Assembly: GCA_021414235.1 (NCBI GenBank)
Contig: JAIOOV010000004.1
Span: 121,091-185,090, forward strand
Length of the DNA: 64,000 bases
From: Candidatus Parcubacteria bacterium
Lineage (GTDB): Bacteria; Patescibacteriota; Minisyncoccia; Phycocordibacterales; JAKFXT01
Direction of reading: 5' to 3'
Below are positions 32,244-47,903 of this stretch, in pieces (the stretch's first letter is position 1; the number at the start of each line of letters is the position of its first letter). A program made the position numbers and the translations under genes. A model generated the notes under the pieces. It searched no databases, had not been told where the DNA came from, and was given only the letters and a program-made list of their open reading frames with translations.

Positions 32244-32834
32244 TTACTGTATGACGGTGACGATACCGAAGTGCTGAGGGGCGCTCTGGTTGGTGAAGCT
32301 CCAAGAACCTGCTTTGGAGAAGTTGAAGTCATAGTAGCCACCCTGACCTACGGAGCGGACCTGGTCGAACTCAGGATATATGGGGGCGCCGTTCTGGACG
32401 ACGGAGGAGACGCGTAGGCTGAGACCGCTCCTATTAATGAAGCGTACCGAGGTGCCCGCCTTTACGAAGAATTCAGCAGGACGGAAGCCGGTGCTGTCGT
32501 AGTAGACGATCATGCTTGCGGTCTGCTCTGCTTTCTTGATGAGGTCGCTCGTGAGGGTGACTGAAGAGGAACGAGGTATGGATCTCTTTACGGAGTTGCC
32601 GGAAGCGCTGGTGCCACCAGAGGCTGCTTTGTCGATGTCTTCCTGGTAGATGCCCTGCTGGCTGCTGTCCTGAGTATCAGAGGCTACTTCGGTATCCGCG
32701 TCGGGGCGGGAGAAGTAGAGGATGCCTGCCAGGATAAGGGCTAGGACCAAGGTTATGGTAACGATGCGCTTGAGGAATACGGTTGGGTCGTCTTGCATAT
32801 GGCTATACCCTATTCTTTTCCCTGAAACTTTCAA
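32244..32834 (-). CDS. hypothetical membrane-anchored protein
   Basis: N-terminal TM helix (IVTITLVLALILAGILYF) followed by a Ser-rich extracytoplasmic region; no recognised domain. Confidence 0.4.
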   Translation of the reverse strand: MKVSGKRIGYSHMQDDPTVFLKRIVTITLVLALILAGILYFSRPDADTEVASDTQDSSQQGIYQEDIDKAASGGTSASGNSVKRSIPRSSSVTLTSDLIKKAEQTASMIVYYDSTGFRPAEFFVKAGTSVRFINRSGLSLRVSSVVQNGAPIYPEFDQVRSVGQGGYYDFNFSKAGSWSFTNQSAPQHFGIVTVIQ

Positions 32835-33210
32835 GTGCTAGGGCTAGGGCGATACCAAGAATGGAGATATCCCTAAAGAGGACATCCATCTGGCCTGTGT
32901 TGAATATGACGATGCCCGCGAGGAGAACTGACGCGGCTACGCTCGGATAAAAGAGGTTCTTGCCCCACAAGAGCCAACCACCGATGACAATCTCTACGAC
33001 ACCGAAGAGGTGGAGGAGCAGGAGATCGGAGACGATGCCGCGAGTGAAGTCGGGGAAGTAGCCGATCCAGCTGTAGGGATCAAAGAAGGCGGCAATCGGC
33101 GGATAAAGGAATGCGAAGGCGAGTGAGAGACGGAGGATGAGGGAGGTAGTCATGCTACCTATGGTAGCAAATACAGAAATATCTATCTCTCGATTCTCAT
33201 CCGTAACCAC
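32803..33210 (-). CDS. small multi-pass membrane protein (DoxX-like)
   Basis: 3-4 predicted TM helices; overlaps its neighbours, suggesting co-translation. Confidence 0.35.
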   Translation of the reverse strand: MVTDENREIDISVFATIGSMTTSLILRLSLAFAFLYPPIAAFFDPYSWIGYFPDFTRGIVSDLLLLHLFGVVEIVIGGWLLWGKNLFYPSVAASVLLAGIVIFNTGQMDVLFRDISILGIALALALESFREKNRV

Positions 33211-33926
33211 TCGTTTTCCTCCGAGATCTTGCGGACGCCAAAGGCGCGGATGACACCGTTCTCTTCTGTCCCGGCGATCAAGACGGTATCACCGACCTTG
33301 AGAGCGGTAGTGGTAGCGCGCGGGTTATTGCTCGGGAGAAGCACGACGAGGGTGGTAGTGCCGCTACGGGTGTCTTCCACGGTGAGTTGACTTCCGTCGA
33401 TGGCGAGGATGGTACAGCGGCAGAGTCCTCCGCCAGGCGGTGGCGGACGTCGAGCTCCTTCATAAAAGTGCCCGAGGCCGGGAGGCAGATGGCGGGAGCC
33501 TTCGAGCATACGGTCGTTGAAGTAGGTGCCGCGATCCACTGCAAATCCTGCGAGGAGCGTGCCCACGAAGAGGCCAGCGAGCAGATAGAGTACGGGGACC
33601 TTGTAGCCGAACTTGAAACGGCGGAGGAGGTATTCGAGGAGTACCACCAGAGCTACATCGAGGAGTAGGAGGAACCAGGGGAATACGCGAAGGAAGGTGA
33701 AAAGGCCTCTTGAGCCGAACCCGAGGAGTTCCTGGTGATGGTTGATGCGGAGACCGAAGAGGATGAAGTTGAATATGAATACAGAGAGGATGAGTACGGC
33801 CGTGGCTACTGAGGCAAGAGCTACGATCTTTAGTAGAAAGAAATACCGCGGGCGCATGGCTACCTCACCGGAGCGGATATCCTTGAGCAGTTGGTCTTTT
33901 AGATTGGAGGGGTGATGTTCGTTCAT
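33183..33926 (-). CDS. putative anti-sigma factor / membrane protein
   Basis: Overlaps the stop of the upstream ECF sigma gene by 4 nt; cytoplasmic N-terminus, TM helices, C-terminal extracytoplasmic domain. Confidence 0.45.
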   Translation of the reverse strand: MNEHHPSNLKDQLLKDIRSGEVAMRPRYFFLLKIVALASVATAVLILSVFIFNFILFGLRINHHQELLGFGSRGLFTFLRVFPWFLLLLDVALVVLLEYLLRRFKFGYKVPVLYLLAGLFVGTLLAGFAVDRGTYFNDRMLEGSRHLPPGLGHFYEGARRPPPPGGGLCRCTILAIDGSQLTVEDTRSGTTTLVVLLPSNNPRATTTALKVGDTVLIAGTEENGVIRAFGVRKISEENEWLRMRIER

Positions 33927-34510
33927 GTCTTTTTGGCGATTTCCTTCTTAAGCATCTCCTTGGCGCGTTTCAATCTGATGCCTACGGTGCCCGTCGGCAC
34001 CTCTAGGATTTCAGCGATGTCCTTGTAGGCCATATCTTCGAAATAGTGGAGCACGAGGACTTCGCGGTATTTGGGGGAGAGCTTCTCTAATCCGCGATCT
34101 ATCAGTCCTCTCATCTCTTCCTGCTCACGCTCCGACTCTGTAGGGTCTTCATAGGCAGGATGCGGTATGAAGGTATCGAAATCTACTAAGAGAGGAGAGC
34201 GTTCGTTCTTGCGAAGCGCGTTCACGAAGGCGTTGTGGGCTACTCGGTAGATCCAAGGGTTGAAGCGCTGCGTGCTGTCATAGCTCTGGATGTTCTGATA
34301 CACACTCACGAAGACGTCCTGCACGATATCCTGGATATCTTCTTTGCGGGAGAGGAACCTCCTCCCGTAGCGGGTGAGCTTCTGCTCGAAGCGATCCACC
34401 AGGATACCGAACGCTTCCCGGTCTCCTTGTTGGACCATTTCGGCGATTTTCTCATCAGTGAAAGCTTCCACCTTCATATAGTACAGGTTCGGTAGCACAA
34501 AACCCCTCAA
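33923..34510 (-). CDS. ECF-type RNA polymerase sigma-70 factor
   Basis: Region 2 (FGILVDRFEQKL...YRVAHNAFVNALRK) and region 4 HTH (YKDIAEILEVPTGTVGIRLKRAKEML). Confidence 0.85.
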   Translation of the reverse strand: MRGFVLPNLYYMKVEAFTDEKIAEMVQQGDREAFGILVDRFEQKLTRYGRRFLSRKEDIQDIVQDVFVSVYQNIQSYDSTQRFNPWIYRVAHNAFVNALRKNERSPLLVDFDTFIPHPAYEDPTESEREQEEMRGLIDRGLEKLSPKYREVLVLHYFEDMAYKDIAEILEVPTGTVGIRLKRAKEMLKKEIAKKT

Positions 34511-35361: not shown

Positions 35362-35448
35362 GGAGGGGTGGCTGAGTGGTCGAAAGCGCCTCACTGCTAA
35401 CGAGGTAGGGTCTTAAAGCCCTCGCGGGTTCGAATCCCGCCCCTTCCG
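35362..35448 (+). tRNA. tRNA-Ser (anticodon GCU), class II with long variable arm
   Basis: GGAGGGG...CTGCTAA...long variable arm...GCGGGTTCGAATCCCGC-CCCTTCC-G. Confidence 0.7.
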
Positions 35449-35451
35449 CAT

Positions 35452-36293: not shown

Positions 36294-36932
36294 CTAATGC
36301 GCCACCGCGAGCGCCAGTACCTCTCTTGCTCCCGCTTTCTCTAGAACCTTCCTCGCCTCTTCCAGCGTCGCTCCTGTGGTGGTGACGTCGTCGATAAGGA
36401 TGATTCGTGCTCCTTTTATCTTCACGCCTTCCTTTACTGCAAAACTGTTCCTCAAATTCGCCAGACGCTCACTCCTACTTTTTGTTCCGCTCTGGGGAGA
36501 GGTCTCTCGGCTTTTCGTGAGGAGGGCTGAGAGGGCGAATGGACCATCTGCTCCCTGGAGCTTGATGAGTTGCTCCGCGATGCGCTCCGTCTGACTGTAG
36601 CCGCGCTCCCTTAGGCGGGTGCGGCTCGTCGGTATCGGTACTAGGAGATAGCGCTCGCCCGGGAGTCTCTCTCCAAGAAGAGAGGGGAGCTCGTGCCAGA
36701 GGATCTCCGCACAGAGACCTGCGGCTCTCTGGCTGTTTTTGTATTTCAAAAGATTGATCAGCGTATGTACGAGCGGATGGCGGTAGGCGAGTGCGGCGTG
36801 CTGCCACGGAGGTAGTTGTTCGATGAGTTGTGCTCGACGGATTATCTCCGGAGCAGAGAGGGAGAGAGTGAGACGCTCCTCGGGCGAATGGGGGAAGATG
36901 GTGTCCAAGAGGTTCTCCCAGAGATTTGACAT
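36294..36932 (-). CDS. comFC: ComF-family phosphoribosyltransferase-domain competence protein
   Basis: C-terminal PRTase motif (ARIILIDDVTTTGATLEEA). Lacks the N-terminal Cys zinc-ribbon. Divergent from pilM. Confidence 0.65.
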   Translation of the reverse strand: MSNLWENLLDTIFPHSPEERLTLSLSAPEIIRRAQLIEQLPPWQHAALAYRHPLVHTLINLLKYKNSQRAAGLCAEILWHELPSLLGERLPGERYLLVPIPTSRTRLRERGYSQTERIAEQLIKLQGADGPFALSALLTKSRETSPQSGTKSRSERLANLRNSFAVKEGVKIKGARIILIDDVTTTGATLEEARKVLEKAGAREVLALAVAH

Positions 36933-36989
36933 AAACGGAGCTAAATCAAGGTATGTTACAATTGTAGCCTACAACCCCTCTCTTTATTT

Positions 36990-38117
36990 ATGGCCGGTAT
37001 CCTTCAAAAGCTAGAGAAGTTCTTCCCCGCTGGGGTTTTTTCTAGTGCCACGGGCAGCGTCATCGGCATCGATATCGGCTCTTCCGCTATCAAAGTAGTG
37101 CAGCTCAAGAAGAAGGGCGGCAAGGTGGTGCTCGAGACCTACGGCTCCCTCTCCCTCGGTCCGTATGCCGGTACGGAAGCCGGTCGCGGTACTAATCTCC
37201 CAGCAGACAAGCTCGCTGTAGCCGTGGAAGATCTCCTGCGCGAAGCTAACGTGACTACGCGGGATGGCGCTATCGCTATGCCGCTCTCCTCGAGCCTCAT
37301 CTCTCTCGTCTCCATGCCTGCGCTCGATGAGAGCAAGATGGCGGAGATGGTCCCGCTTGAGGCGCGCCGTTACATTCCGGTACCGATGACCGAAGTGACG
37401 CTCGACTGGTGGGTCATCCCTCAGGAAGAGTCCGTGCTTTTGAATACCTCGGAAGACAAGGGTGGGCACGTGGATGTGCTCCTTGTGGCCATCCTCAACG
37501 AAGCGCTACAGAAATATCAGAATGTCACCCATGCGCTGAAGCTGGAGAAAGCCTTCCTAGAAATCGAGCTTTTCAGCTCCGTGCGCGCTGCGCTCGACCA
37601 GGGGATACAGCCGGTTATGTTGATCGACTTTGGTGCTTCGAGCGCCAAGATCTATCTGGTAGAGCACGGCATCGTGCGTGATTCTCATAGCATCAACAAG
37701 GGCTCTCAGGACATCACCCTCTCCATCTCTCGGGGTATGAACGTTACTCCGGTGCGCGCAGAAGAGCTCAAGCGGGGAAGCGGCATCCCGGCGACTCCCG
37801 AAGAAGTCCTGCGAGTGAAGGAGGCTTCGGCGCTCGTGCTCGATGCAATATTCGCGGAGGCCCGCCGCATCATGCTCCTCTTCGAGAAGCGCTCTAATAA
37901 GACGGTAAGTAAGATCGTGGTTTCTGGCGGCGGCTCCGCACTTACGGGCTTCGGGGACATGCTCAAGGTGCGTTTTCCAGATACGGAAATTCTTTGGGCC
38001 GATCCTTTTGCAAAGACTGTGGCGCCAGCATTCCTCGAGAAGACTCTGAAGGAACTCGGTCCTGAATTTACGGTTGCGGTGGGTCTTGCACTCCGAAAAC
38101 TCAATCAATTCGCATAA
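36990..38117 (+). CDS. pilM: type IV pilus assembly ATPase-like protein PilM
   Basis: Actin-like fold signature (IGIDIGSSAIKVVQL). Confidence 0.85.
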   Translation: MAGILQKLEKFFPAGVFSSATGSVIGIDIGSSAIKVVQLKKKGGKVVLETYGSLSLGPYAGTEAGRGTNLPADKLAVAVEDLLREANVTTRDGAIAMPLSSSLISLVSMPALDESKMAEMVPLEARRYIPVPMTEVTLDWWVIPQEESVLLNTSEDKGGHVDVLLVAILNEALQKYQNVTHALKLEKAFLEIELFSSVRAALDQGIQPVMLIDFGASSAKIYLVEHGIVRDSHSINKGSQDITLSISRGMNVTPVRAEELKRGSGIPATPEEVLRVKEASALVLDAIFAEARRIMLLFEKRSNKTVSKIVVSGGGSALTGFGDMLKVRFPDTEILWADPFAKTVAPAFLEKTLKELGPEFTVAVGLALRKLNQFA

Positions 38118-38143
38118 CTGTGCATATCGGATGACGTGCGCTG

Positions 38144-38806
38144 TTGTATACTTACTACCAAATGGATGTAGTTTCTCAGACGTCGTTCATCCCCAAGAAG
38201 CCGATCATGCAAGCGCCGCAGGCGCAGGCTTCTCGCGGGACGAGTCTATTCCTTCTTGTTTCCGTATTCCTCTTTGTGGGTTCTTTGCTTTTGGCCGCCG
38301 GCGTCTATGTATGGAAAGGAACGCTTCAGCGCGGGATCGAGAGCCAGAAGGAGAGCCTCGCACGCAACCGCGACGCTTTCGAACCGGCTTCCATCATCAA
38401 GCTCCAGCGCCTCTCCCGCCGCTTGGAGATCTCTAAGACTATCCTCGCTAACCACCTGGCGCCCTCCCAGCTTTTTGCGGTACTAGAAGAGTCTACTCTC
38501 CAGAACGTGCGCTTCTCCTCTATGGATTTCGCGCTTGATCAGACCAAGGGAACCGCGGCCCTTACCATGAAGGGTCAGGCTCGGAGCTATGGAGCGGTCG
38601 CGCGGCAATCTGACGTCTTCGCCAAGGCGTCTGGTATAAAGAATCCGGTCTTCTCGGAGCTGAATCTGGATCAGAGAGGGAACGTGGTCTTCTCTTTCAC
38701 CGCCGCGGTGGACCCTTCTTCTCTCCGCTACTCTTCGCTTCTTAATTCTCGGGTGACGGCGCCCGCGCAAACCGAAGTCTCCCCGACTTCTGAGAATAAT
38801 TTATGA
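38144..38806 (+). CDS. pilN: type IV pilus assembly protein PilN-like
   Basis: Single N-terminal TM helix plus a periplasmic coiled-coil/ferredoxin-like region; sits after pilM. Confidence 0.6.
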   Translation: MYTYYQMDVVSQTSFIPKKPIMQAPQAQASRGTSLFLLVSVFLFVGSLLLAAGVYVWKGTLQRGIESQKESLARNRDAFEPASIIKLQRLSRRLEISKTILANHLAPSQLFAVLEESTLQNVRFSSMDFALDQTKGTAALTMKGQARSYGAVARQSDVFAKASGIKNPVFSELNLDQRGNVVFSFTAAVDPSSLRYSSLLNSRVTAPAQTEVSPTSENNL

Positions 38807-39339
38807 CCCGCTTCTTATTCCCCAGCATCTTGCTCGCCATCACCGCCCTTCTCTTCTGGGCGTATATCGATCCACAGTACCAGATCGTGAAGGGGCTTCG
38901 TGCGGAATCCCAGAGCTATGAAGAGGCGCTCGCGAGCTTCCGGGAAATACAGAGCGTGCGCGATGAGCTCACCAGCCGCTACAACACCTTTAGTACCGAT
39001 GACGTGACGCGTCTCGAGCGCCTCCTCCCGGATACGGTGGATAACGTACGCCTGGTGCTCGATATCAATAACATCGCCGGTCGTTACGGCTTGGTCATCA
39101 AGGACGTGCGTCTCTCAAGTCTCGCTAAGGATCCCAACAAGCTTGGTCCCGAGAATCAGGAATACGGCACGCTGGTGCTGCAGTTCTCGGTGACTGCGGG
39201 CTACTCCAATTTTGTCGCCTTCATGAAGGACCTGGAGGATAGTCTGCGGGTGGTGGATGTCTCAGGTATCTCCTTTAAGACTGCGGAGAGCCAGCTTGCG
39301 GACTATGACGTAGCTGTCCAGACCTATTGGCTCAAATAA
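38803..39339 (+). CDS. pilO: type IV pilus assembly protein PilO-like
   Basis: Overlaps the pilN stop by 4 nt; N-terminal TM helix and coiled coil. Confidence 0.6.
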   Translation: MTRFLFPSILLAITALLFWAYIDPQYQIVKGLRAESQSYEEALASFREIQSVRDELTSRYNTFSTDDVTRLERLLPDTVDNVRLVLDINNIAGRYGLVIKDVRLSSLAKDPNKLGPENQEYGTLVLQFSVTAGYSNFVAFMKDLEDSLRVVDVSGISFKTAESQLADYDVAVQTYWLK

Positions 39340-39340
39340 T

Positions 39341-39682
39341 ATGGATTTTCTTAAACAATACGGCGGGTACATGGCGATAGGGCTCCTGGTAGCGTCCATA
39401 GTTTATGGCGGCTACTCCTATCTCGGGGGAGGATCCGAGCCTGCTGCGCCGCTTGTCTCGCGTACGGGAGGTACGGTAGCGCCGGCGGTGGGTGGTGACC
39501 TCCTCACTACGCTTCTTAGTCTGCACTCGCTCTCGCTTGATCCGACGGTCTTCGGTGATCCAGTGTTCCGCAATCTCAAGGACTTCGGCATCCCCATACC
39601 GGCAGAGGCCGTAGGCCGCAGTAATCCGTTCGCACCGCTCGGCGAGAACGCCCGCGCCGCCTCTACTCCCTCCACTCCGTAA
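39341..39682 (+). CDS. small membrane-anchored protein (PilP-like position)
   Basis: Single TM helix (YMAIGLLVASIVYGGY) plus a Gly/Pro-rich tail; sits between pilO and pilB. Confidence 0.35.
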   Translation: MDFLKQYGGYMAIGLLVASIVYGGYSYLGGGSEPAAPLVSRTGGTVAPAVGGDLLTTLLSLHSLSLDPTVFGDPVFRNLKDFGIPIPAEAVGRSNPFAPLGENARAASTPSTP

Positions 39683-39700
39683 TTTCGGATAGTTCAAAAA

Positions 39701-41443
39701 ATGAATCCCCTCAACTTTCTCGTAGAAAAAAAACTGGTGAGAGAGGAAGACCTCCCGTCCATCGAAGCCGAGATCAAGGCCTCCGGTGGTAATGTAGAGA
39801 AGGTTCTCCTTGCTCGCGGTGTCGATCGTGCGGATATCCTCGCGGCGCGCGGTGCCTACCTGAACATCCCTTCTCGAACAGTGGATGTGAACGCGGTGCC
39901 CTACGAGATACTCAAGTACATCCCGGAGGAATCCGCGGCTCACTACCGCTTCGTGCCTATCGGGCTTGAGGAGGGCGTACTTGAGGTGGGTATCGTGGAC
40001 CCGGATAACATAGAAGCTCGTGATGCGCTCAATTTCATATCTTCCAAGATAAACCTGCCATTCAAGCTCTTCCTCATCTCGGAAGAGGATTACGACAAGG
40101 TCATCGGCTCTTATAAGGGACTCTCCGGTGAGGTGGGGCAGGCGCTCTCCGAGCTCGATACGGAGCTTGCCAAGAAGAAGGGAGACGACGACAGCGACAG
40201 CGACTTCGGCAAAGCCGAAGAACTCACTCCTACCAAGAAGGACGCGACAGGAGCCAAGATTATCGAAGATGCCCCGGTCACCAAGATCGTGGCGACCACG
40301 CTCCGCTATGCCATCGAGGGCAATGCCTCCGATATCCACATCGAGCCGACCGCTGACAAGCTGCGGGTGCGCTTCCGCGTGGATGGCGACCTTAATACCA
40401 GCCTGGTACTGCCGATCTCCGTGCATCGCTCGGTGATCGCGCGTATCAAGATTCTCTCCAACATGAAGCTCGACGAGAAGCGTAAGCCCCAGGATGGCCG
40501 CTTCTCCGCGCGTATCGAGGGCCGTGAAGTGGACTTCCGTGTCTCCACCTTCCCGACCTATTACGGAGAGAAGCTGGTGATGCGTATCTTGGACAAGGAC
40601 AAGGGTATCCATGCGCTCGACCAGCTCGGCTTGCGTGAGCCTGATCTCGCCATGATCCGCAAGGCCATCAAGAAGCCTTACGGCATGATCCTCATCTCTG
40701 GTCCCACCGGCAGCGGCAAATCCACCACTCTCTACTCCATGCTCTCGGAGGTGGATCGCGCGCAGAAGAACGTGCTCTCGCTCGAGGACCCGGTGGAGTT
40801 CAACATCGAGGGTGTGAGCCAGTCGCAGATACGCCCGGAGATCGATTACACCTTTGCCACCGGATTGCGCACTACGCTCCGCCAGGACCCGGACATCATC
40901 ATGGTAGGTGAGATCCGCGACAAGGAGACCGCGCAGCTCGCGGTGCAGGCGGCGCTCACCGGTCACTTGGTGCTCTCTACCATACATACCAACAACGCCA
41001 TTGGCGTCATCCCGCGCCTCATCGACATGGGCGTCGATCCTTTCCTTATCGCGCCGACCCTCGTGCTCACCATCGCACAGCGCCTGGTCCGTACGCTCTG
41101 TCCTAATGGCGGCAAGGAGATGCCCATTGAGGGTTCCATCAAGGCGTTTATCGACGAGACGTTCGATGACCTCCCGGCAGAGGCTAAGAAACTGAAGCCT
41201 ACGGGTAATCTCTATGGGGCAGCGCAGACGCCGGACTGTCCCAATGGTACCCGCGGGCGCATGGCGGTGTTCGAGATGTTCGAGATGGACAAGGAGCTCG
41301 AGGGGGTGATCCTCAAGGATCCGACAGATGTCTCCGTAGAGAAGGCAGTGCGCTCCAAAGGCATGCTCACTCTTCAGGAGGACGCCCTCATCAAGTGTGC
41401 GCAGCGCCTAGTACCTTTCGAAGAAGTGAACACCCTGGTCTGA
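39701..41443 (+). CDS. pilB: type IV pilus assembly ATPase PilB (GspE family)
   Basis: GSPII_E N-terminal domain, Walker A ISGPTGSGKSTTL, Asp box, His box, tetracysteine-like CxxC...CPNG. Confidence 0.9.
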   Translation: MNPLNFLVEKKLVREEDLPSIEAEIKASGGNVEKVLLARGVDRADILAARGAYLNIPSRTVDVNAVPYEILKYIPEESAAHYRFVPIGLEEGVLEVGIVDPDNIEARDALNFISSKINLPFKLFLISEEDYDKVIGSYKGLSGEVGQALSELDTELAKKKGDDDSDSDFGKAEELTPTKKDATGAKIIEDAPVTKIVATTLRYAIEGNASDIHIEPTADKLRVRFRVDGDLNTSLVLPISVHRSVIARIKILSNMKLDEKRKPQDGRFSARIEGREVDFRVSTFPTYYGEKLVMRILDKDKGIHALDQLGLREPDLAMIRKAIKKPYGMILISGPTGSGKSTTLYSMLSEVDRAQKNVLSLEDPVEFNIEGVSQSQIRPEIDYTFATGLRTTLRQDPDIIMVGEIRDKETAQLAVQAALTGHLVLSTIHTNNAIGVIPRLIDMGVDPFLIAPTLVLTIAQRLVRTLCPNGGKEMPIEGSIKAFIDETFDDLPAEAKKLKPTGNLYGAAQTPDCPNGTRGRMAVFEMFEMDKELEGVILKDPTDVSVEKAVRSKGMLTLQEDALIKCAQRLVPFEEVNTLV

Positions 41444-41511
41444 CGTACGCACCCGCCTTTGCTATACTTAGATATATATCGCGTTCTCGCTAATCTTTTT
41501 AAAATAAATTT

Positions 41512-41898
41512 ATGAGCAAGAAAAAAATCCTCCTCATCGACGACGATAAGTTCCTCATCGACATGTATTCGCTGAAGTTCTCCCAGGCAGACTTCGAGGT
41601 GAGTGCCGCGCTCGGCGCGGAAGATGCGTTAAAGAAGCTCCGCGAAGGTTTTCAGCCTGATGCCATCCTCCTCGACGTGGTCATGCCGGGCATGAGTGGA
41701 ATCGAGCTGCTGCGTACGATCCGCGAAGAGAAGCTCGATCGTGGAGCTACCGTGGTGGTCCTTTCGAATCAGGGCCAGCAGAATGATATAGACGAGGCTA
41801 AGGCGGTGGGTATCGACGGCTACATCGTGAAGGCGAGCACTATTCCCTCGGAAGTGCTCGAGCAGGTGCGGGAGATCATGGAGCATAAGAACCGATGA
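41512..41898 (+). CDS. single-domain response regulator (CheY-like receiver)
   Basis: LLIDDD...DAILLDVVMPGMSGIELL...K; phospho-acceptor Asp context, 128 aa. Its stop overlaps the pilT start. Confidence 0.8.
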   Translation: MSKKKILLIDDDKFLIDMYSLKFSQADFEVSAALGAEDALKKLREGFQPDAILLDVVMPGMSGIELLRTIREEKLDRGATVVVLSNQGQQNDIDEAKAVGIDGYIVKASTIPSEVLEQVREIMEHKNR

Positions 41899-42956
41899 AT
41901 TACGAACAGTCCCTCTTTGCGCTCATAGATACGGTCATCGGAGAAGGAGGTTCCGACCTCCATCTCTCTGAGGGCAGGCGTCCTACTATCCGTGTCGCGG
42001 GGGCGCTCACGCCGCTTCTTACCAAAGAGCCGCTTACCAAGGAGGATACTAGGGGATTTGTAGAAGTGCTGCTTGGCGCGGAAGCTGCCAAACGCTTCTT
42101 CGAGACCAAAGAGGTGGATTTCTCTTATTCATACAAGGACAAGGCGCGTTTCCGCGGCAACGCCTATTTCCAGCAGGGGGCAGTCGGCATCGCTCTCCGT
42201 CTCATCCCTCGTTCTGTCCGCACGCTCGCAGAACTCTCGCTTCCGCCCATCCTCGAGACCTTCGCCCGTCGTCCCCAAGGCTTCTTCCTGGTGGTGGGCC
42301 CGGTAGGGCAGGGCAAGACCACTACGCTCGCCGCACTCATCGACCTCATCAACACGGAGCGTGCGGAACACATCATCACCATCGAGGATCCGATCGAATA
42401 CCTCTTCGAGCAGAAGAAATCCATCATTGATCAGCGAGAGGTGCGCATCGATACTGCAGATTTCCCCACGGCGCTCCGAGCAATGTTTCGCGAGGATGTG
42501 AATGTGGCCATGATCGGAGAGATGCGCGGGCAGGATACTATCGCTACGGCGGTCACTGCTGCGGAGACCGGCCACCTCATCTTCTCTACTCTTCATACCA
42601 ACAATGCGGCACAGACCATCGACCGCATCATTGATACCTTCCCCGGGAATCAGCAGGATCAGATCCGGGTGCAGCTTGCGGCATCCCTCTCCGGCATCTT
42701 CTCCCAGCGTCTCATCCCGAGGGTCTCTGGAGGCCTCATCCCGGCTTACGAGCTTTTGGTGAATAATGCGGCGGTCGGGAACCTTATCCGCGAGCGCCGC
42801 ACACATGAGATCAACACCGTCATCGAGACAGGGAGCGACCAGGGGATGATCGATCTCAATCGCTCCTTGGCCGACTTGGTGCGTCGGGGCGAGATCACTC
42901 AGGAGAGCGCCTACCGCTACTCGCTCAATCCTAAGAGCTTGGAGCGTCTCATTTAA
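41895..42956 (+). CDS. pilT: twitching-motility retraction ATPase PilT
   Basis: 353 aa; Walker A VVGPVGQGKTTTLAAL and the PilT-type AIRNLIRE motif (AVGNLIRERR). Confidence 0.9.
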   Translation: MNYEQSLFALIDTVIGEGGSDLHLSEGRRPTIRVAGALTPLLTKEPLTKEDTRGFVEVLLGAEAAKRFFETKEVDFSYSYKDKARFRGNAYFQQGAVGIALRLIPRSVRTLAELSLPPILETFARRPQGFFLVVGPVGQGKTTTLAALIDLINTERAEHIITIEDPIEYLFEQKKSIIDQREVRIDTADFPTALRAMFREDVNVAMIGEMRGQDTIATAVTAAETGHLIFSTLHTNNAAQTIDRIIDTFPGNQQDQIRVQLAASLSGIFSQRLIPRVSGGLIPAYELLVNNAAVGNLIRERRTHEINTVIETGSDQGMIDLNRSLADLVRRGEITQESAYRYSLNPKSLERLI

Positions 42957-42965
42957 TTTCTTACT

Positions 42966-44171
42966 ATGCTGTTTCTCTACAAAGCCATCGAGCAGAGCGG
43001 AGCCGCGACCGAGGGTTCCATCGACGCCCTCAATCAGGAGGTGGCGGTGGCTTCGCTCCAACGTCGCGGACTCGTGGTGACCTCGGTGGAGCCTGCGGAC
43101 AAGCCTTCTTTCTTCGGGAAGGATATCTTCCTGTTCAATCCGATTTCGAATAAAGACATCGTGGTGCTCTCCCGTCAGGTGGCCACGCTCTTTACGGCGC
43201 AGGTTTCCGCGCTCCGCATCTTCCAGCTCCTCTCCGCAGAGACCCCCAACAAGGTCCTCGGTACGCACCTCATCGAAGTAGCCAACGACATCCAGGGAGG
43301 AAGTTCCATCTCCAAGGCGATGGACAAGCACCCAGGAGTCTTCTCCTCCTTCTATGTGAACATGGTGCGCGCGGGAGAGGAGAGCGGTAAGCTGGACGAG
43401 ACTTTCCTCTATCTCGCCGATTATCTCGATCGCAACTACGAGATCACCGCCAAGGCTAAGAACGCGCTCATCTACCCGGCGTTCGTCATCTTCACGTTCG
43501 TGGTGGTGATGGCGCTCATGCTGACCTTCGTCATCCCGAAGATTAGCTCCATCCTCACCGATTCCGGACAGGACATCCCGCTCTATACAAGGCTCGTTAT
43601 CGGTATGAGTAATGCGCTCACCGACTATGGCGTGTTCTTCCTGATCGCGCTCGTGGTCGCAGGGTTCTTCGCCTTTCGCTTCGGCAAGACCGAGAAGGGG
43701 ATGCTCTCGATCGCGCGCATCAAGATATCTACGCCCTATGTCGGCGAGCTTTATCGCAAGCTCTACCTCTCGCGCATCTCGGACAACCTCTCGACTATGA
43801 TCCAGAGCGGCATCCCTATCGTGCGCGCCATGGAGATCACTGCTTCCGTGGTGGACAATGCGGTTTATGAGAATATTTTGCTCTCGGCCGCAGAGAAGGT
43901 TCGCGGCGGCGCTCCTCTGTCTGAAGCCATCAACGGGAACCCGGAGATGCCGAACATCCTCATTCAGATGGTGCGGGTGGGAGAGGAGAGCGGCGAGATG
44001 TCGGAGATATTGAAGACGCTCGCCAAGTTCTACAATCGCGAGGTATCTACGGCGGTGGATACGCTCGTCGATCTCATCGAGCCGGCCATGATCGTACTTC
44101 TTGCTACCGGCGTCGGCTTTCTCTTGGCCTCCGTTCTCGTGCCAATCTACAATCTTACTCAGGCGTTTTAG
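42966..44171 (+). CDS. pilC: type IV pilus inner-membrane platform protein PilC (GspF family)
   Basis: Two T2SSF repeats, 3 TM helices; 401 aa. Confidence 0.9.
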   Translation: MLFLYKAIEQSGAATEGSIDALNQEVAVASLQRRGLVVTSVEPADKPSFFGKDIFLFNPISNKDIVVLSRQVATLFTAQVSALRIFQLLSAETPNKVLGTHLIEVANDIQGGSSISKAMDKHPGVFSSFYVNMVRAGEESGKLDETFLYLADYLDRNYEITAKAKNALIYPAFVIFTFVVVMALMLTFVIPKISSILTDSGQDIPLYTRLVIGMSNALTDYGVFFLIALVVAGFFAFRFGKTEKGMLSIARIKISTPYVGELYRKLYLSRISDNLSTMIQSGIPIVRAMEITASVVDNAVYENILLSAAEKVRGGAPLSEAINGNPEMPNILIQMVRVGEESGEMSEILKTLAKFYNREVSTAVDTLVDLIEPAMIVLLATGVGFLLASVLVPIYNLTQAF

Positions 44172-44249
44172 CCTCGGCACTATCCACAGAGGAGCTTCCA
44201 AAGGGGAGGGGAGAGTATATAATTACCATCACGGCAGTTAATCAATCAT

Positions 44250-44669
44250 ATGTTCAAAACGAATAAAGGTTTTACGCTCATCGAATTACTGGTGGTCATT
44301 GCCATCATCGGCCTCCTCTCGTCGGTGGTCCTGGCGTCTCTTAATAGCGCGCGAAGCAAGGCGCGCGATGCTCGCCGCGTCGCTGATATTCAGCAGCTCC
44401 GGACCGCCTTGGAGTTGTACTATGACTCCAATCGAACCTATCCGGTCGTCTCTGCGGCAGCTGTAGGCAGCAACCTGGATGCGCTTAAGACGGGCGCCTT
44501 TATCCCTGCAATCCCCACTGATCCTACCGGTACCGTTTCTTATTGGTATGCAGGCAGCGCTACCACCTACTGTCTAGGAGTGACCCTTGAAAATACCGGT
44601 AATCTTCCGGCTTCCGGCAACGGCTCGCTTTGTACCGGCGTGACGGGTAATTACAAGGTTTCTCCGTAA
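44250..44669 (+). CDS. pilA: type IV pilin (major pilin candidate)
   Basis: Class III signal peptide KGFTLIELLVVIAIIGLL; C-terminal Cys pair; followed by a strong terminator. Confidence 0.8.
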   Translation: MFKTNKGFTLIELLVVIAIIGLLSSVVLASLNSARSKARDARRVADIQQLRTALELYYDSNRTYPVVSAAAVGSNLDALKTGAFIPAIPTDPTGTVSYWYAGSATTYCLGVTLENTGNLPASGNGSLCTGVTGNYKVSP

Positions 44670-44680
44670 TCTGGTTTCTC

Positions 44681-44721
44681 AAGACAAAACCCCGGACTTT
44701 GCGTCCGGGGTTTTGTCTTTT
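44681..44721 (+). terminator. rho-independent terminator after pilin gene
   Basis: aaaaccccggac-tttgc-gtccggggtttt in T-rich context. Confidence 0.8.
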
Positions 44722-44740
44722 CGCGGTATAATCATCGTTA

Positions 44741-45562
44741 ATGGATCAGAGCTTCCTTGTCCTTCTTTCCGTCGGTCTCTTCTCCTTCGGCCTGATCATC
44801 GGGAGCTTTCTTAATGTACTCGTTCTCCGTTACCGTACGGGGCGAACGCTCGGAGGCCGCTCTGGCTGCTTCTCCTGTAATGCCTCTCTCTCTGCTCTAG
44901 AGCTCGTGCCGGTATTGAGCTGGCTCTTTCTCCGTGGTCGCTGCCGCAGCTGCCGCAGCGCTATCTCCGTGCAGTATCCGCTAGTAGAGTTCGCTACCGG
45001 ACTTCTCTTCCTCGCAAGCCTGCTCATCTTTGATTTCTCCTCCCTGTCCTGGTTTCTCCTTGGCGGGCTATTTTCATACTTCGTCGCGGTCTCCTCCCTT
45101 GTCACACTTGTCACTTACGATGTCCGTCATCAGATCATCCCGGACTCGTTCGTGCTGACCTTTGTCCTTGCCGCGCTCTTCTTCAATCTCTTCCGTGGAG
45201 AGGCGGCGACTCCGCATCTTCTCGCGGGCGTACTACTCAGTGTCCCGTTCGCAGCTATCTGGTATTTCTCCGAAGGGAGATATATGGGGCTAGGGGACGG
45301 GAAGCTCGCCTTCGGCATCGGAGTGCTCCTCGGCTCCTTGGGAGGCCTTACTGCAATTATCTTAGGATTCTGGTCGGGTGCGCTCTTCGGGCTCCTGCTC
45401 CTTTTCCTGCAGAGAGTCGGAATGCGTTTGAGTTTGGGTCGGGTTCCTCTTACAATGAAGAGCGAAGTTCCGTTCGCGCCCTTCCTTGTCGCGGGGACCC
45501 TCTATGTTCTCTTCACTCACTTCTCGCTTTTCGACCAGAACCTCGTCGCTTCGCTTTTCTAA
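44741..45562 (+). CDS. pilD: prepilin peptidase (A24 family)
   Basis: N-terminal CxxC...CxxC zinc motif; 8 TM helices; catalytic Asp contexts. Confidence 0.85.
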   Translation: MDQSFLVLLSVGLFSFGLIIGSFLNVLVLRYRTGRTLGGRSGCFSCNASLSALELVPVLSWLFLRGRCRSCRSAISVQYPLVEFATGLLFLASLLIFDFSSLSWFLLGGLFSYFVAVSSLVTLVTYDVRHQIIPDSFVLTFVLAALFFNLFRGEAATPHLLAGVLLSVPFAAIWYFSEGRYMGLGDGKLAFGIGVLLGSLGGLTAIILGFWSGALFGLLLLFLQRVGMRLSLGRVPLTMKSEVPFAPFLVAGTLYVLFTHFSLFDQNLVASLF

Positions 45563-45564
45563 AC

Positions 45565-46233
45565 ATGCGTTCCTTTTTTAAACACAGCGAGAAGAACCTG
45601 TCTGCGCAAGCAGGGTTCACTCTCATTGAACTCCTGGTGGTCATTGCTATCTTCGGCTTGCTCACCACGGTAATCTTCGCTCGTCAGAGCCAGTTTAGTG
45701 GCTCCACTCTCCTCACTAATGTGGCATATCAGATTGCGCTCACGCTCCGCCAAGCCCAGGTATACGGGCTTTCCGTCCGTGAGTTCTCTTCTGATAAGTT
45801 TAACTACCCGTACGGGGTACATTTTGACAAGGCTTCTGGCTCGAATACTTCCATAGTGTTCTTCGTGGATTCCGAGGCGGAGTTCCCCGTCTCTTCTGAC
45901 TATGATCCTCAGATGCCTGATGCGGCTATCTCGGGGACGTGCGGAGCGAGCGGAAATCCTTGTCTCGACTTGCTCACCATCACTCGGGGGAACTACGTGT
46001 ATGACGTCTGTGCGGTATCCACAGGCGGTTCCACCTGCGAGTCTGCGGACAAGCTCGATATCTCTTTCGTGCGCCCGGATCCTGAAGCGCGCATCGTGAG
46101 TGTCCGTGGCGGTGCTCCGACAGGGGACAACATCCGCGGGTGCGTGACACTCGGTTCCATCCAGGGCGCCTTCCGCTACGTCATTGTGACTAATACGGGA
46201 CAGATATCCGTCTCCGCTTCTTCTTGCATATGA
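45565..46233 (+). CDS. minor pilin / pseudopilin
   Basis: Prepilin leader AGFTLIELLVVIAIFGLL. Confidence 0.7.
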   Translation: MRSFFKHSEKNLSAQAGFTLIELLVVIAIFGLLTTVIFARQSQFSGSTLLTNVAYQIALTLRQAQVYGLSVREFSSDKFNYPYGVHFDKASGSNTSIVFFVDSEAEFPVSSDYDPQMPDAAISGTCGASGNPCLDLLTITRGNYVYDVCAVSTGGSTCESADKLDISFVRPDPEARIVSVRGGAPTGDNIRGCVTLGSIQGAFRYVIVTNTGQISVSASSCI

Positions 46234-46838
46234 ACCCTCGCTTTAAAAAGGAAGCTGGCTTCACGCTCATCGAGATTATTGTAGCGACGGGCCTCTTTGC
46301 AGCGGTGATGCTCATTGCCGTGGGTTCGCTGATGTCCATTATCGATGCCAACCGCAAAGCGCAGTCGCAGCAGATAGTGATGAATAACCTGAGCGCTGCC
46401 GTGGAGAGTATTTCGCGCACCATCCGTGTCGGCGCGCTCTACCATTGCGGCTCGAGCGGCTCTCTCACTAATCCCCAGGATTGCACATCTGGCGGGAGCT
46501 ATCTTGCCTTTAAGCCGCGGGAAGCCATCGCTGACACCGGTCAATCTACGCTTCGGTATGTCTACAGACGCAACAGCGATAGCTCTGGAGGATTCATCGA
46601 GATGTCGCGTGACGGTGGCAGCACGTTCTCTCGGCTCACTGCGCCGGAGATCAACGTGGAAGGGTTCACCTTCTACGTGACTGGTTCGTGTCCTAAGAAC
46701 GGGAGCTTCGGGTGCACGGCGGACAATCTCCAGCCTCGTGCTCTCATCACTGTGTACGGCTCCGCGCAGATCTCCGAGAAGACGCGTACGACCTTCAATG
46801 TGCAGACGTCCGTGACTCAGCGTCTCTTCGATATCTAA
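46224..46838 (+). CDS. minor pilin / pseudopilin
   Basis: Prepilin leader AGFTLIEIIVATGLF. Confidence 0.7.
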   Translation: MHMNPRFKKEAGFTLIEIIVATGLFAAVMLIAVGSLMSIIDANRKAQSQQIVMNNLSAAVESISRTIRVGALYHCGSSGSLTNPQDCTSGGSYLAFKPREAIADTGQSTLRYVYRRNSDSSGGFIEMSRDGGSTFSRLTAPEINVEGFTFYVTGSCPKNGSFGCTADNLQPRALITVYGSAQISEKTRTTFNVQTSVTQRLFDI

Positions 46839-46839
46839 T

Positions 46840-47388
46840 ATGAAAAACATTCCTTCACGGCGCGGCTTCACTCTTGTCGAGACCTTGGTCGCAATCAGCG
46901 TCCTACTCACCGCTCTGGTGGGTCCTATGACCATCGCCGCGCGCGGCGTTTTCACCGCAGGTGTGGCGCGTGACCAGGTTACTGCGTACTTCCTAGCGCA
47001 GGAAGCTATGGAATATGTGCGTGCGGTGCGCGACGGCAACGGCTTGGCGTCTCTCAATACGGACCCGCAGAGCCCGTCTTGGCTCACCGGTCTCGCGACG
47101 TACTGCGAGAGTACCTATTGCTATGTGGATGCCAAGAATAACTCGGTGGCTTCCTGTAGCTCGACTCACGCGAGCTGTCCTGCTCTCAAGCTCGACACCT
47201 CGGTCGCGGCTAATCCTTTCTATGTGCACGGTGGCTCATATTCCGACTCTCCCTTCAAGCGTTCTGTCCGCCTGGAGCAGGTCTCTGCGGACGAAGAGAA
47301 GGTGACGGTCACGGTCACGTGGATGACAGGAGGCCTTTCTAAGACGGTGACCCTGGTCGATCAGCTTAATAACTGGCAGACGTTCTGA
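46840..47388 (+). CDS. minor pilin / pseudopilin
   Basis: Prepilin leader RGFTLVETLVAISVLL. Confidence 0.7.
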   Translation: MKNIPSRRGFTLVETLVAISVLLTALVGPMTIAARGVFTAGVARDQVTAYFLAQEAMEYVRAVRDGNGLASLNTDPQSPSWLTGLATYCESTYCYVDAKNNSVASCSSTHASCPALKLDTSVAANPFYVHGGSYSDSPFKRSVRLEQVSADEEKVTVTVTWMTGGLSKTVTLVDQLNNWQTF

Positions 47389-47390
47389 GT

Positions 47391-47903
47391 ATGAAAACCT
47401 ACTCTCTATCCTTCAAGAAAAGCGCACAGGCAGGCTTCGCCCTGCTCATGGCCTCCCTCGTGGCGAGCGTGGTGCTCGCCATCGGCACGGTGATCGCGGA
47501 TCTCGCCATCAAGCAGATCGTGCTCTCCGGTACGGCGCGAGAATCACTGAACGCGCTCTACGCTGCAGACACCGGCACGGAGTGCGCCCTGTTCCTTGAT
47601 TTTAGGTATAACGATTCTACGGAGCCCTCTTTCAATCCGACTTCGCAGGTTTGCAATGGCCAGACGCTCGTGTTCACTACTCCGGATGAGCCCGGGACGC
47701 TCTCTGGAGAAGTCTGGCAGCAATTCAAGCTCAATCTTGTCACGGGCGATGACACGGGTGCCTGCGCCTACGTGTCGGTAGGGAAGAGCCAGCCGGCAGA
47801 GGGACAGATTAAGACGCGCATCCGCTCCCGCGGGTACAACGTCTGTCCTGAGGGTCCGAGCAGTGCCCGTCGCGTGGAACGCGCGCTCCAGGTGGAATAT
47901 TAA
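47391..47903 (+). CDS. PilX-like minor pilin
   Basis: Leader QAGFALLMASLVASVVLAIG (PilX N-terminal-like). Confidence 0.55.
   Translation: MKTYSLSFKKSAQAGFALLMASLVASVVLAIGTVIADLAIKQIVLSGTARESLNALYAADTGTECALFLDFRYNDSTEPSFNPTSQVCNGQTLVFTTPDEPGTLSGEVWQQFKLNLVTGDDTGACAYVSVGKSQPAEGQIKTRIRSRGYNVCPEGPSSARRVERALQVEY

Follow-up and report, generated by a model that had tools for sequence, protein, structure and literature searches.

Even in model organisms, where regulators such as PilG/PilH, FimX, PilZ, and MglA sit in large networks, it is to our knowledge still an open question how a type IV pilus (T4P) machine chooses between its extension and its retraction motor. This question is raised by a pilus and competence gene cluster located at positions 36294 to 47903 of a 64-kb window (the whole stretch of DNA that was analysed) from a Parcubacteria/Paceibacteria metagenome-assembled genome (MAG). 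Between the genes of the extension ATPase PilB and the retraction ATPase PilT, a gene at 41512..41898 (+ strand) encodes a stand-alone receiver of 128 aa, hereafter REC, for which the original prediction suggested a phospho-dependent control of extension versus retraction in the manner of PilG/PilH. REC is a lineage-wide component that is position-locked to pilT in most Parcubacteria, and no peculiarity of one genome. With a probability of roughly 55%, we consider it to be a dedicated phospho-switch with a direct action on the pilus motor module, probably on PilT, and with a kinase that is encoded elsewhere.

REC matches the CheY-like receiver family PF00072 with 74.1 bits (cutoff 30.2; residues 6-110; E 1.3e-20) and aligns end to end with the receivers of CheY, RR468, and PhoB in the PDB. 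Its key residues comprise the phospho-acceptor D55, the acidic pocket D10-D12, S85, K107, and the switch residue Y104, which is the equivalent of Y106 in CheY. D11, D12, D55, and K107 are invariant, at first in 68 species-representative orthologues and then in 144 unique sequences that include metagenome loci; position 85 is occupied by S or T in all 144, Y104 is kept in 66 of the 68 and in 142 of the 144, and D10 in 142 of the 144 as well. Since D11, D12, D55, S/T85, and K107 are invariant, the Asp, Lys, and Thr phospho-relay residues whose loss had been considered beforehand are retained throughout, and the predicted stand-alone CheY-like receiver is borne out. The invariance of positions 11-19 is partly circular due to the fact that they belonged to the pattern with which the metagenome loci were fished; D55, S/T85, K107, Y104, P112, and E114 lie outside of this pattern. 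The average identity of the 144 orthologues amounts to only approximately 55%. Helix alpha1 (F14, L15, M18, Y19, K22, F23) matches the active site in its degree of conservation. Other receivers dock onto their kinase via alpha1, and its conservation in REC suggests a conserved phosphodonor. Judged from these residues, REC is a canonical and, as predicted, phosphorylation-competent single-domain response regulator under strong purifying selection.

The protein is identical to the NCBI entry "response regulator [Candidatus Parcubacteria bacterium]", and its close relatives all belong to the Patescibacteria. Among the 25 NCBIfam models listed for it, none is a PilG/PilH model; the highest-ranking ones describe PhoB, MtrA, NarL, and CheY-type receivers, and REC stays far below the cutoff of each. 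In a search of a representative library of 1.8 billion proteins, multi-REC proteins dominate the ranking, and the nearest non-orthologous relatives are tandem-REC proteins of approximately 270 aa with 35-40% identity per domain. An Asn at the position following the conserved S/T (T+1) was considered as a hallmark of the REC family and rejected, as S/T-N is also the commonest pair (155 of approximately 300) in the REC domains of the nearest longer relatives.

The position of the gene was followed in two sets of loci, whose members are designated by L numbers. Eighty species-representative genomes were chosen via PilT (64-76% PilT identity) and not via REC to avoid bias; these are all of the Parcubacteria type, i.e., Vogel-, Nomura-, Kaiser- and Giovannonibacteria as well as Paceibacterota. 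A further 80 metagenome loci were fished with the REC alignment from at least 577 matching stretches. The syntenic array of the PilT-anchored loci consists of comFC on the opposite strand, pilM-pilN-pilO, a gene for a small protein, pilB-REC-pilT-pilC, one to five pilA genes, pilD, and four minor pilin genes, followed by ligA. Across the Parcubacteria-type genomes compared, the pilB-REC-pilT arrangement turned out to be lineage-wide, with REC as the direct upstream neighbour of pilT in 68 of the 79 PilT-anchored loci that offer room for it. In the other 11 loci REC is missing and pilB adjoins pilT at a distance of -23 to 229 nt, the cluster being otherwise intact. Since the REC-less loci form one clade of seven on the PilT tree (L016, L028, L031, L044, L047, L050, and L069) together with four scattered singletons, REC is most simply regarded as ancestral and as having been cleanly lost at least four to five times.

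All REC-anchored loci with room (76 out of 76) carry pilT directly downstream of REC, and pilB is situated directly upstream in 71 out of 75. Insertions always occur between pilB and REC, with REC staying next to pilT (L024, L054, L071, L072, L098, L101, and L131), and the inserts are heterogeneous, i.e., an EamA-like membrane protein, a DUF559-like open reading frame (ORF), an extra pilin, a PGAM-type phosphatase, or unrelated DNA. The spacer between REC and pilT measures at most 17 nt or is replaced by an overlap in 49 of 67 orthologous loci. In the window, the stop codon of REC overlaps the start codon of pilT in an ATGA at 41895..41898 (+), which had been predicted and was read directly from the sequence (...AAG AAC CGA TGA / ATG AAT TAC). 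The arrangement recurs in approximately 150 independent loci, which is far beyond chance, and the conserved linkage to pilT is a direct observation. REC and pilT are predicted to be co-transcribed and made together, and the pair in the window is probably translationally coupled via the ATGA.

Some of these loci deserve separate mention. The EamA-like protein between pilB and REC has 10 transmembrane (TM) helices (L024:7613-8533 and L072:7528-8451), and a homologue at L080:1980-2912 (- strand) adjoins a multi-TM histidine kinase beside the pilus cluster. In L131, the PGAM-type histidine phosphatase (577-1137) is situated directly upstream of REC-pilT-pilC; pilB is not adjacent and murA is found further upstream. 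Many GTDB representatives among L002 to L074 that carry the Parcubacteria-type cluster with 64-73% PilT identity are titled "uncultured Candidatus Saccharibacteria bacterium", which looks like a generic placeholder and not like a real assignment to the Saccharimonadia.

For the phosphorylation of REC, its partner, and the direction of its effect, we infer the following chain of events. Phosphorylation of Asp55 would switch the alpha4-beta5-alpha5 face through S85 and Y104. Phosphorylated REC would then bind directly to a cytoplasmic motor component, most likely PilT and otherwise PilB or the PilC platform. Binding would alter the ATPase activity of this motor or its access to the platform, and the pilus would thus be biased between extension and retraction. 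The phosphodonor would be encoded elsewhere, as a histidine kinase that also serves another regulator ("one-to-two" wiring), or its place would be taken by a small molecule, e.g., acetyl phosphate. Because several lineages have lost the gene cleanly, REC would be a modulator and not a structural part of the pilus machine.

Which component is contacted was addressed by mirror-tree analysis, i.e., partial correlation of divergence with phylogeny controlled, in a first run on 49 loci and a second run with ten genes, 29 loci, and resampling. Positive controls gave 0.62 for PilN-PilO, 0.58 for PilT-PilC, 0.51 for PilB-PilC, and 0.49 for PilM-PilB. In the first run, REC correlated with PilT (0.47), PilC (0.31), and PilB (0.27), and values of approximately 0 were obtained for PilM, PilN, and PilO. 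The second run resulted in 0.33 for PilT, 0.33 for PilC, and 0.30 for PilB, with approximately 0-0.1 for PilM, PilN, PilO, PilD, ComFC, and LigA; these values are weak indicators, as the pairs are not independent and carry no p-value and as proteins of similar rate may correlate. With this reservation, co-variation tentatively assigns REC to the module of cytoplasmic motors and platform, and the gene order points specifically to PilT.

Several results weigh against a phospho-switch acting on PilT. An initial conclusion that PilT is singled out by the mirror-tree analysis (0.47 in 49 loci) was dropped, since the run with 29 loci and more controls does not separate PilB, PilT, and PilC from one another. 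No positions were found to be relaxed in PilM, PilB, PilT, and PilC of the REC-less lineages among columns that are conserved to at least 93% in REC-containing loci, and thus the losses of REC leave no interface signature. The adjacency to pilT can also reflect shared regulation without direct contact. Furthermore, Pfam annotation of all sizeable ORFs of the window revealed no histidine kinase, no Chp gene (CheA, CheW, or methyl-accepting chemotaxis protein, MCP), and no secretin, and no syntenic kinase was detected in 76 of the 80 species loci. Since no kinase was found in either place, we infer phosphorylation of REC from residue conservation only. A six-frame scan of the window for H-box, N, G1, and G2 motifs likewise gave no kinase, and a tblastn search of the window with a Paceibacteria kinase gave no match, in agreement with the original prediction that kinase, Chp genes, and pilQ are missing from the vicinity. 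CheA, CheW, and MCP were not found in the flanks of the 80 species loci either, where four classical kinases considered unrelated were the sole exception, and none of the inserts between pilB and REC is a kinase.

The N-terminus of PilB was also considered as a partner of REC, due to the fact that PilB is approximately 50 aa shorter in REC-less loci. This candidate was rejected: two REC-less loci keep a full-length PilB, and because the short form is a clade trait shared by many REC-containing loci, its link to the loss of REC is explained by phylogenetic confounding. In L013, L017, L036, L043, L048, L057, L059, and L060 as well as in the REC-less clade, PilB lacks its first approximately 55 residues independently of the presence of REC. 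The missing residues correspond to the first half of the MshEN-type N-domain, which is a c-di-GMP-binding region in MshE-type ATPases.

Kinases were found beside the pilus cluster in individual loci. L021 carries a classical histidine kinase together with an OmpR-type regulator, and L080 a multi-TM kinase. In L038 and L078, a short soluble kinase (sHK; approximately 252 aa with HisKA and HATPase_c domains and no TM helix) and a second receiver, REC2, are located directly upstream of comFC. REC2 is a single-domain receiver of 124 aa with 34% identity to the pilus REC. The large and highly conserved sHK family (approximately 251 aa) yielded 2,940 matches at E ≤ 1e-10, of which the best 120 are all approximately 250 aa long with at least 60% identity; sHK is always followed by REC2 and usually then by recG. 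Such sHK-REC2 pairs are situated at L038:1169-2341 (-), L078:460-1642 (-), L162:6001-7168, L163:6001-7183, and L164:3166-4348, and the sHK of L163 shares one 128-kb contig with the REC-containing pilus locus L046.

Thus, sHK is a candidate phosphodonor for the pilus REC, and a model of one kinase with two receivers, comparable to ColS with ColR and EmvR or to ChpA with PilG and PilH, may be taken as a lead. Counting against this model, the alpha1 residues differ (F-L-L-D-M-Y..K-F in REC versus F-L-Q-G-L-E..K-L in REC2), and recG is present in the window but neither sHK nor REC2. Among the best 120 of the 2,940 proteins, the search for sHK gave no match on the 544,218-bp source contig. In a bolder version, which is tempting but improbable, a sensor-less sHK would phosphorylate REC2 beside recG and also the pilT-linked REC, and the latter, once phosphorylated, would dock onto the PilT hexamer and either set off or prevent retraction when a host is contacted or DNA is captured. 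If true, this circuit would be the simplest known decision between extension and retraction, made without a chemoreceptor, and a lineage-specific invention of ultra-small episymbionts. Concerning the slot upstream of recG, where Nomurabacteria have sHK-REC2, the window contains on the - strand (32244-34510) an extracytoplasmic function (ECF) sigma factor gene (33923-34510). Next to it, three small ORFs without family match (33183-33926, 32803-33210, and 32244-32834) possibly form an anti-sigma module.

Receivers that act on pilus motors are known from other bacteria. PilG and PilH of the Pseudomonas Pil-Chp system are described as single-domain CheY-like receivers that bias T4P extension or retraction and motor localisation (PMC11656802; PMC10519157); no direct interaction of PilG/H with PilB is reported in one review (PMC11656802). 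The genes for PilG and PilH occur with those for the MCP PilJ, the CheA-type ChpA, the CheW protein PilI, and methylation enzymes, none of which was found in the window or the related loci, and they are not embedded between pilB and pilT, unlike REC. Of the PilG/PilH-like role that was originally proposed, the tight coupling of a receiver to pilT stands, whereas orthology to PilG or PilH is unsupported: REC is not a demonstrated orthologue because the defining Chp context was looked for and is absent, and its profile matches are generic PhoB and CheY types below their cutoffs.

Closer parallels are found in Xanthomonas. EmvR of X. oryzae, an orphan single receiver with a functional Asp, binds to PilB and represses the ATPase activity of the latter; its phosphoryl group comes from the kinase of a different pair (PMC11973254). 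Like EmvR, REC is a single receiver without output domain and with an intact phospho-acceptor Asp, and the likeness may extend to motor binding and to a kinase encoded elsewhere. EmvR differs in that it is not part of a pilus motor operon and that its host is a proteobacterium with secretin and Pil-Chp; the homology to REC considered here is that of the receiver fold. DrdR of X. campestris, a tandem-REC orphan without output domain, binds both PilB and PilT and raises both ATPase activities (PMC13507683). In contrast to the pilus REC, which is single and located beside pilT, DrdR has two REC domains, one of which is degenerate, and is not operon-linked to pilT. By analogy, REC might work most like EmvR or DrdR. 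In Synechocystis, the PATAN-REC proteins PixG/PixH (TaxP/TaxY) are described to contact the extension motor PilB1 and to steer pilus activity (10.1101/2021.06.11.447907; PMC11181946). Unlike REC, they carry an additional PATAN domain, and their genes belong to chemotaxis-like operons that also encode a CheA-type kinase and a photoreceptor.

For the Candidate Phyla Radiation (CPR), co-localisation of PilB, PilT, PilC, PilM, PilN, PilO, and PilD, the absence of PilQ, and the wide occurrence of ComFC were described by Méheust in 2019; the terms "response regulator", "two-component", and "kinase" do not occur in that text (PMC6744442). Locus 1 of the Saccharibacteria strain TM7x was described without a regulator (PMC11623550). 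The gene set of the window equals the published CPR cluster, and both papers are silent on a response regulator, a kinase, or a protein with the GRxNPF motif (see below) in the cluster. No description that links a receiver to CPR pilus motors was found in the literature searched. The compact cluster and the missing secretin are thus ordinary for the CPR and already published, and the embedded receiver is the new part. It differs from EmvR and DrdR by its fixed place in the motor operon beside pilT, in a secretin-less machine and throughout a whole class of reduced genomes.

Four other explanations were weighed. The target of REC might not be PilT but the extension ATPase PilB or the PilC/PilM platform, similar to the case of EmvR or the PATAN-REC regulators of Synechocystis, with the adjacency to pilT being a matter of operon history. 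The immediate upstream position of pilB in 71 of 75 loci and co-variation values for PilB (0.30) and PilC (0.33) that equal that for PilT (0.33) are in agreement with such a partner, as is the fact that most characterised receiver-motor contacts involve PilB (PMC11973254; 10.1101/2021.06.11.447907). However, the adjacency that is never broken is the one with pilT (76 of 76), REC stays with pilT where pilB has been separated, and the short N-terminal variant of PilB does not track the presence or absence of REC, all of which renders this explanation rather unlikely, though worth keeping in mind. Still less probable is a function as a phosphate sink or relay branch, e.g., of the sHK-REC2 pathway, in which REC would make no motor contact and, as a competitor for phosphoryl groups, would tune that pathway in step with pilus expression. 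PilH has been described as a possible phosphate sink (PMC11656802), relatives carry the conserved soluble kinase of approximately 251 aa with a 124-aa receiver that is 34% identical to REC, and this pair adjoins the pilus cluster in L038 and L078. On the other hand, the alpha1 positions that presumably determine kinase specificity differ between REC and REC2, both sHK and REC2 are missing from the window although recG is there, it is hard to see why a sink should have to lie strictly next to pilT, and REC co-varies with the motor proteins.

The remaining two explanations dispense with phosphorylation or with a pilus function altogether. Pseudo-receivers characteristically lose their phosphotransfer residues, whereas in REC all of these are invariant in 144 orthologues at approximately 55% average identity. 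It therefore appears very unlikely that REC is never phosphorylated in vivo and, like a pseudo-receiver, belongs to the motor complex as a constitutive adaptor or subunit, and a structural subunit would not be expected to be cleanly lost at least four to five times. What speaks for such a role is that no kinase was found nearby in the window or in most loci, and that a REC without Asp has a pilus role in FimX (PMC11656802) and the N-terminal REC of DrdR is degenerate (PMC13507683). The intact clusters of the 11 of 79 species loci that lack REC could even suggest a gene without pilus function that merely rides along in the operon. We give this explanation hardly any credence in view of the 76 of 76 adjacencies to pilT in loci fished by REC alone, the strong purifying selection on REC, and co-variation with motor genes only. 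A phospho-switch acting on the motor module, probably on PilT, hence remains our preferred explanation.

A second component of interest is the small membrane protein encoded at 39341..39682 (+), annotated by NCBI as "hypothetical protein" (locus tag K8Q93_01715). Its N-terminal TM helix is followed by a low-complexity linker of variable sequence and then by a short helical module of approximately 50 residues, at the end of which stands the near-invariant motif GRxNPFxP. The original prediction placed it in the PilP position without obvious homology. The position and the lack of a named family were corroborated, but the protein is not specific to this genome and belongs to a family that is conserved in most of the syntenic loci. 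No Pfam family, PilP (PF04351) included, recurs among 28 orthologues at E ≤ 5, and no match was obtained in the PDB. An AlphaFold (AF2) model from 54 sequences (pLDDT 72, pTM 0.24) contains helices at 3-28, 51-62, and 68-77 and an extended tail, and no beta-sandwich. The identity as PilP was thus rejected both by sequence (Pfam, PDB) and by the helical model, and the term "PilP-like" is valid for the position only. Except for the 248-aa fusion with a PilO domain (P0446, JGI), all database relatives are unnamed. The fusion hints that PilO and the GRxNPF module work together, and the small protein represents an uncharacterised family associated with the pilus, which probably acts jointly with PilO.

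The cluster as such was confirmed by the ORF listing and by annotation of each ORF with Pfam and NCBIfam profile hidden Markov models (HMMs), bits being compared to curated cutoffs: all named ORFs were found between 36294 and 47903 at the predicted positions. Their order is comFC-like (- strand), then on the + strand pilM, pilN-like, pilO, the small TM protein gene, pilB, REC, pilT, pilC, pilA, pilD, and four pilin-like genes. PilB/PilT-type ATPases, PilC, PilM/N/O, PilD, and prepilins with G|F...E5 identify a type IVa pilus, the support for PilN being weak. The divergently oriented comFC-like gene (36294..36932, -) encodes a ComF/GntX-family phosphoribosyltransferase (PF00156, 30 bits; TIGR00201, E 6e-21). 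Its predicted identity as ComFC is upheld with regard to family, domain, and orientation, but the protein scores 75 bits against the ComF model TIGR00201 with its cutoff of 234 and lacks the N-terminal Cys cluster (zinc finger): the window copy has no Cys in its first 60 residues, and at least three are present in 40 of 56 syntenic orthologues. It is followed by pilM (36990..38117; TIGR01175, 164 bits, cutoff 133; PF11104, 114 bits) and by a probable divergent pilN (38144..38806), whose true start is perhaps the ATG at 38162. In case of this pilN, two features agree with the prediction, namely a PilN-like topology (an invariant TSFIPK motif at the N-terminus and a single TM helix behind it) and co-variation with PilO (partial r 0.62), whereas no HMM of Pfam or NCBIfam matches the window copy and PF05137 (PilN), the only family recurring among the orthologues, does so weakly (4 of 10, best E 0.016).

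The pilO gene (38803..39339) exceeds its cutoff slightly (PF04350, 28 bits, cutoff 22). Downstream of the small protein gene, pilB (39701..41443) encodes the extension ATPase with an MshEN-type N-terminal domain (PF00437 (T2SSE), 400 bits; PF05157, 41 bits; TIGR02538, E 6e-146). The AT-rich spacer between pilB and REC (41444..41511, +) holds a promoter-like site, CTGACG-17-TATACT with a TG-extended -10 (41440-41468), which is a consensus match only; the promoter scan as a whole showed no enrichment, with 6 sites found versus 5.4 expected from shuffles. Beyond REC follow pilT (41895..42956; TIGR01420, 422 bits, cutoff 319), the platform protein gene pilC (42966..44171; PF00482 (T2SSF), 196 bits in two stretches, and GspF/PilC models), the major pilin candidate pilA (44250..44669; N_methyl, 35 bits; G|FTLIE), and the prepilin peptidase gene pilD (44741..45562; PF06750 (A24_N_bact), 97 bits; PF01478 (Peptidase_A24), 40 bits). 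Between pilC and pilD, one to five tandem pilA-like genes occur among otherwise syntenic loci.

Of the four prepilin-leader proteins predicted at the end of the cluster, three (45565-46233, 46224-46838, and 46840-47388, all +) possess an N_methyl match and G|F...E+5 and are regarded as minor pilins. The fourth (47391..47903, +) has a G|F site but Met at +5 and neither Glu+5 nor an N_methyl match; in 48 of 54 orthologues a hydrophobic residue at +5 replaces the Glu. Because of this combination, the product resembles the tip-associated minor pilins of the GspK/PilX type.

Further ORFs of the window encode ribosomal and translation proteins, SecY, a VirD4/TraG-like ATPase, an RNase-J-like protein, FtsH, RecG, the ECF sigma factor, FolD, and LigA, as well as GatCA, ABC-F, RF2, FtsEX, PyrG, NDK, SpeD, and a few small ORFs without family match. 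The VirD4/TraG-like coupling ATPase (19108-21894, +; 928 aa; DUF87, T4SS-DNA_transf, TraG-D_C) is located amid housekeeping genes, with no other conjugation genes nearby. Shortly before the cluster, a tRNA-Ser(GCT) gene (35362-35449, +) separates a DUF5666 gene from folD; apart from a tRNA-Ser and sub-threshold noise, Rfam and tRNA scans of the region from 33 to 49 kb gave no hits, and no riboswitch was detected.

According to the prevailing view, CPR bacteria attach to their hosts and take up DNA by means of pili. In hundreds of their reduced genomes with very few signalling proteins, a canonical phospho-switch appears to be fixed to pilT, and because signalling proteins are so few in these genomes, its circuit should be short. 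Although the organisms are uncultured, REC, PilT, and PilB are small soluble proteins, which makes heterologous expression feasible. If REC turns out to be a generic regulator with an ordinary kinase elsewhere, the finding would amount to no more than a helpful annotation of a pilus component that is conserved in the CPR. A signal that feeds into the motors, in turn, would be the first regulatory handle on the behaviour of CPR pili.

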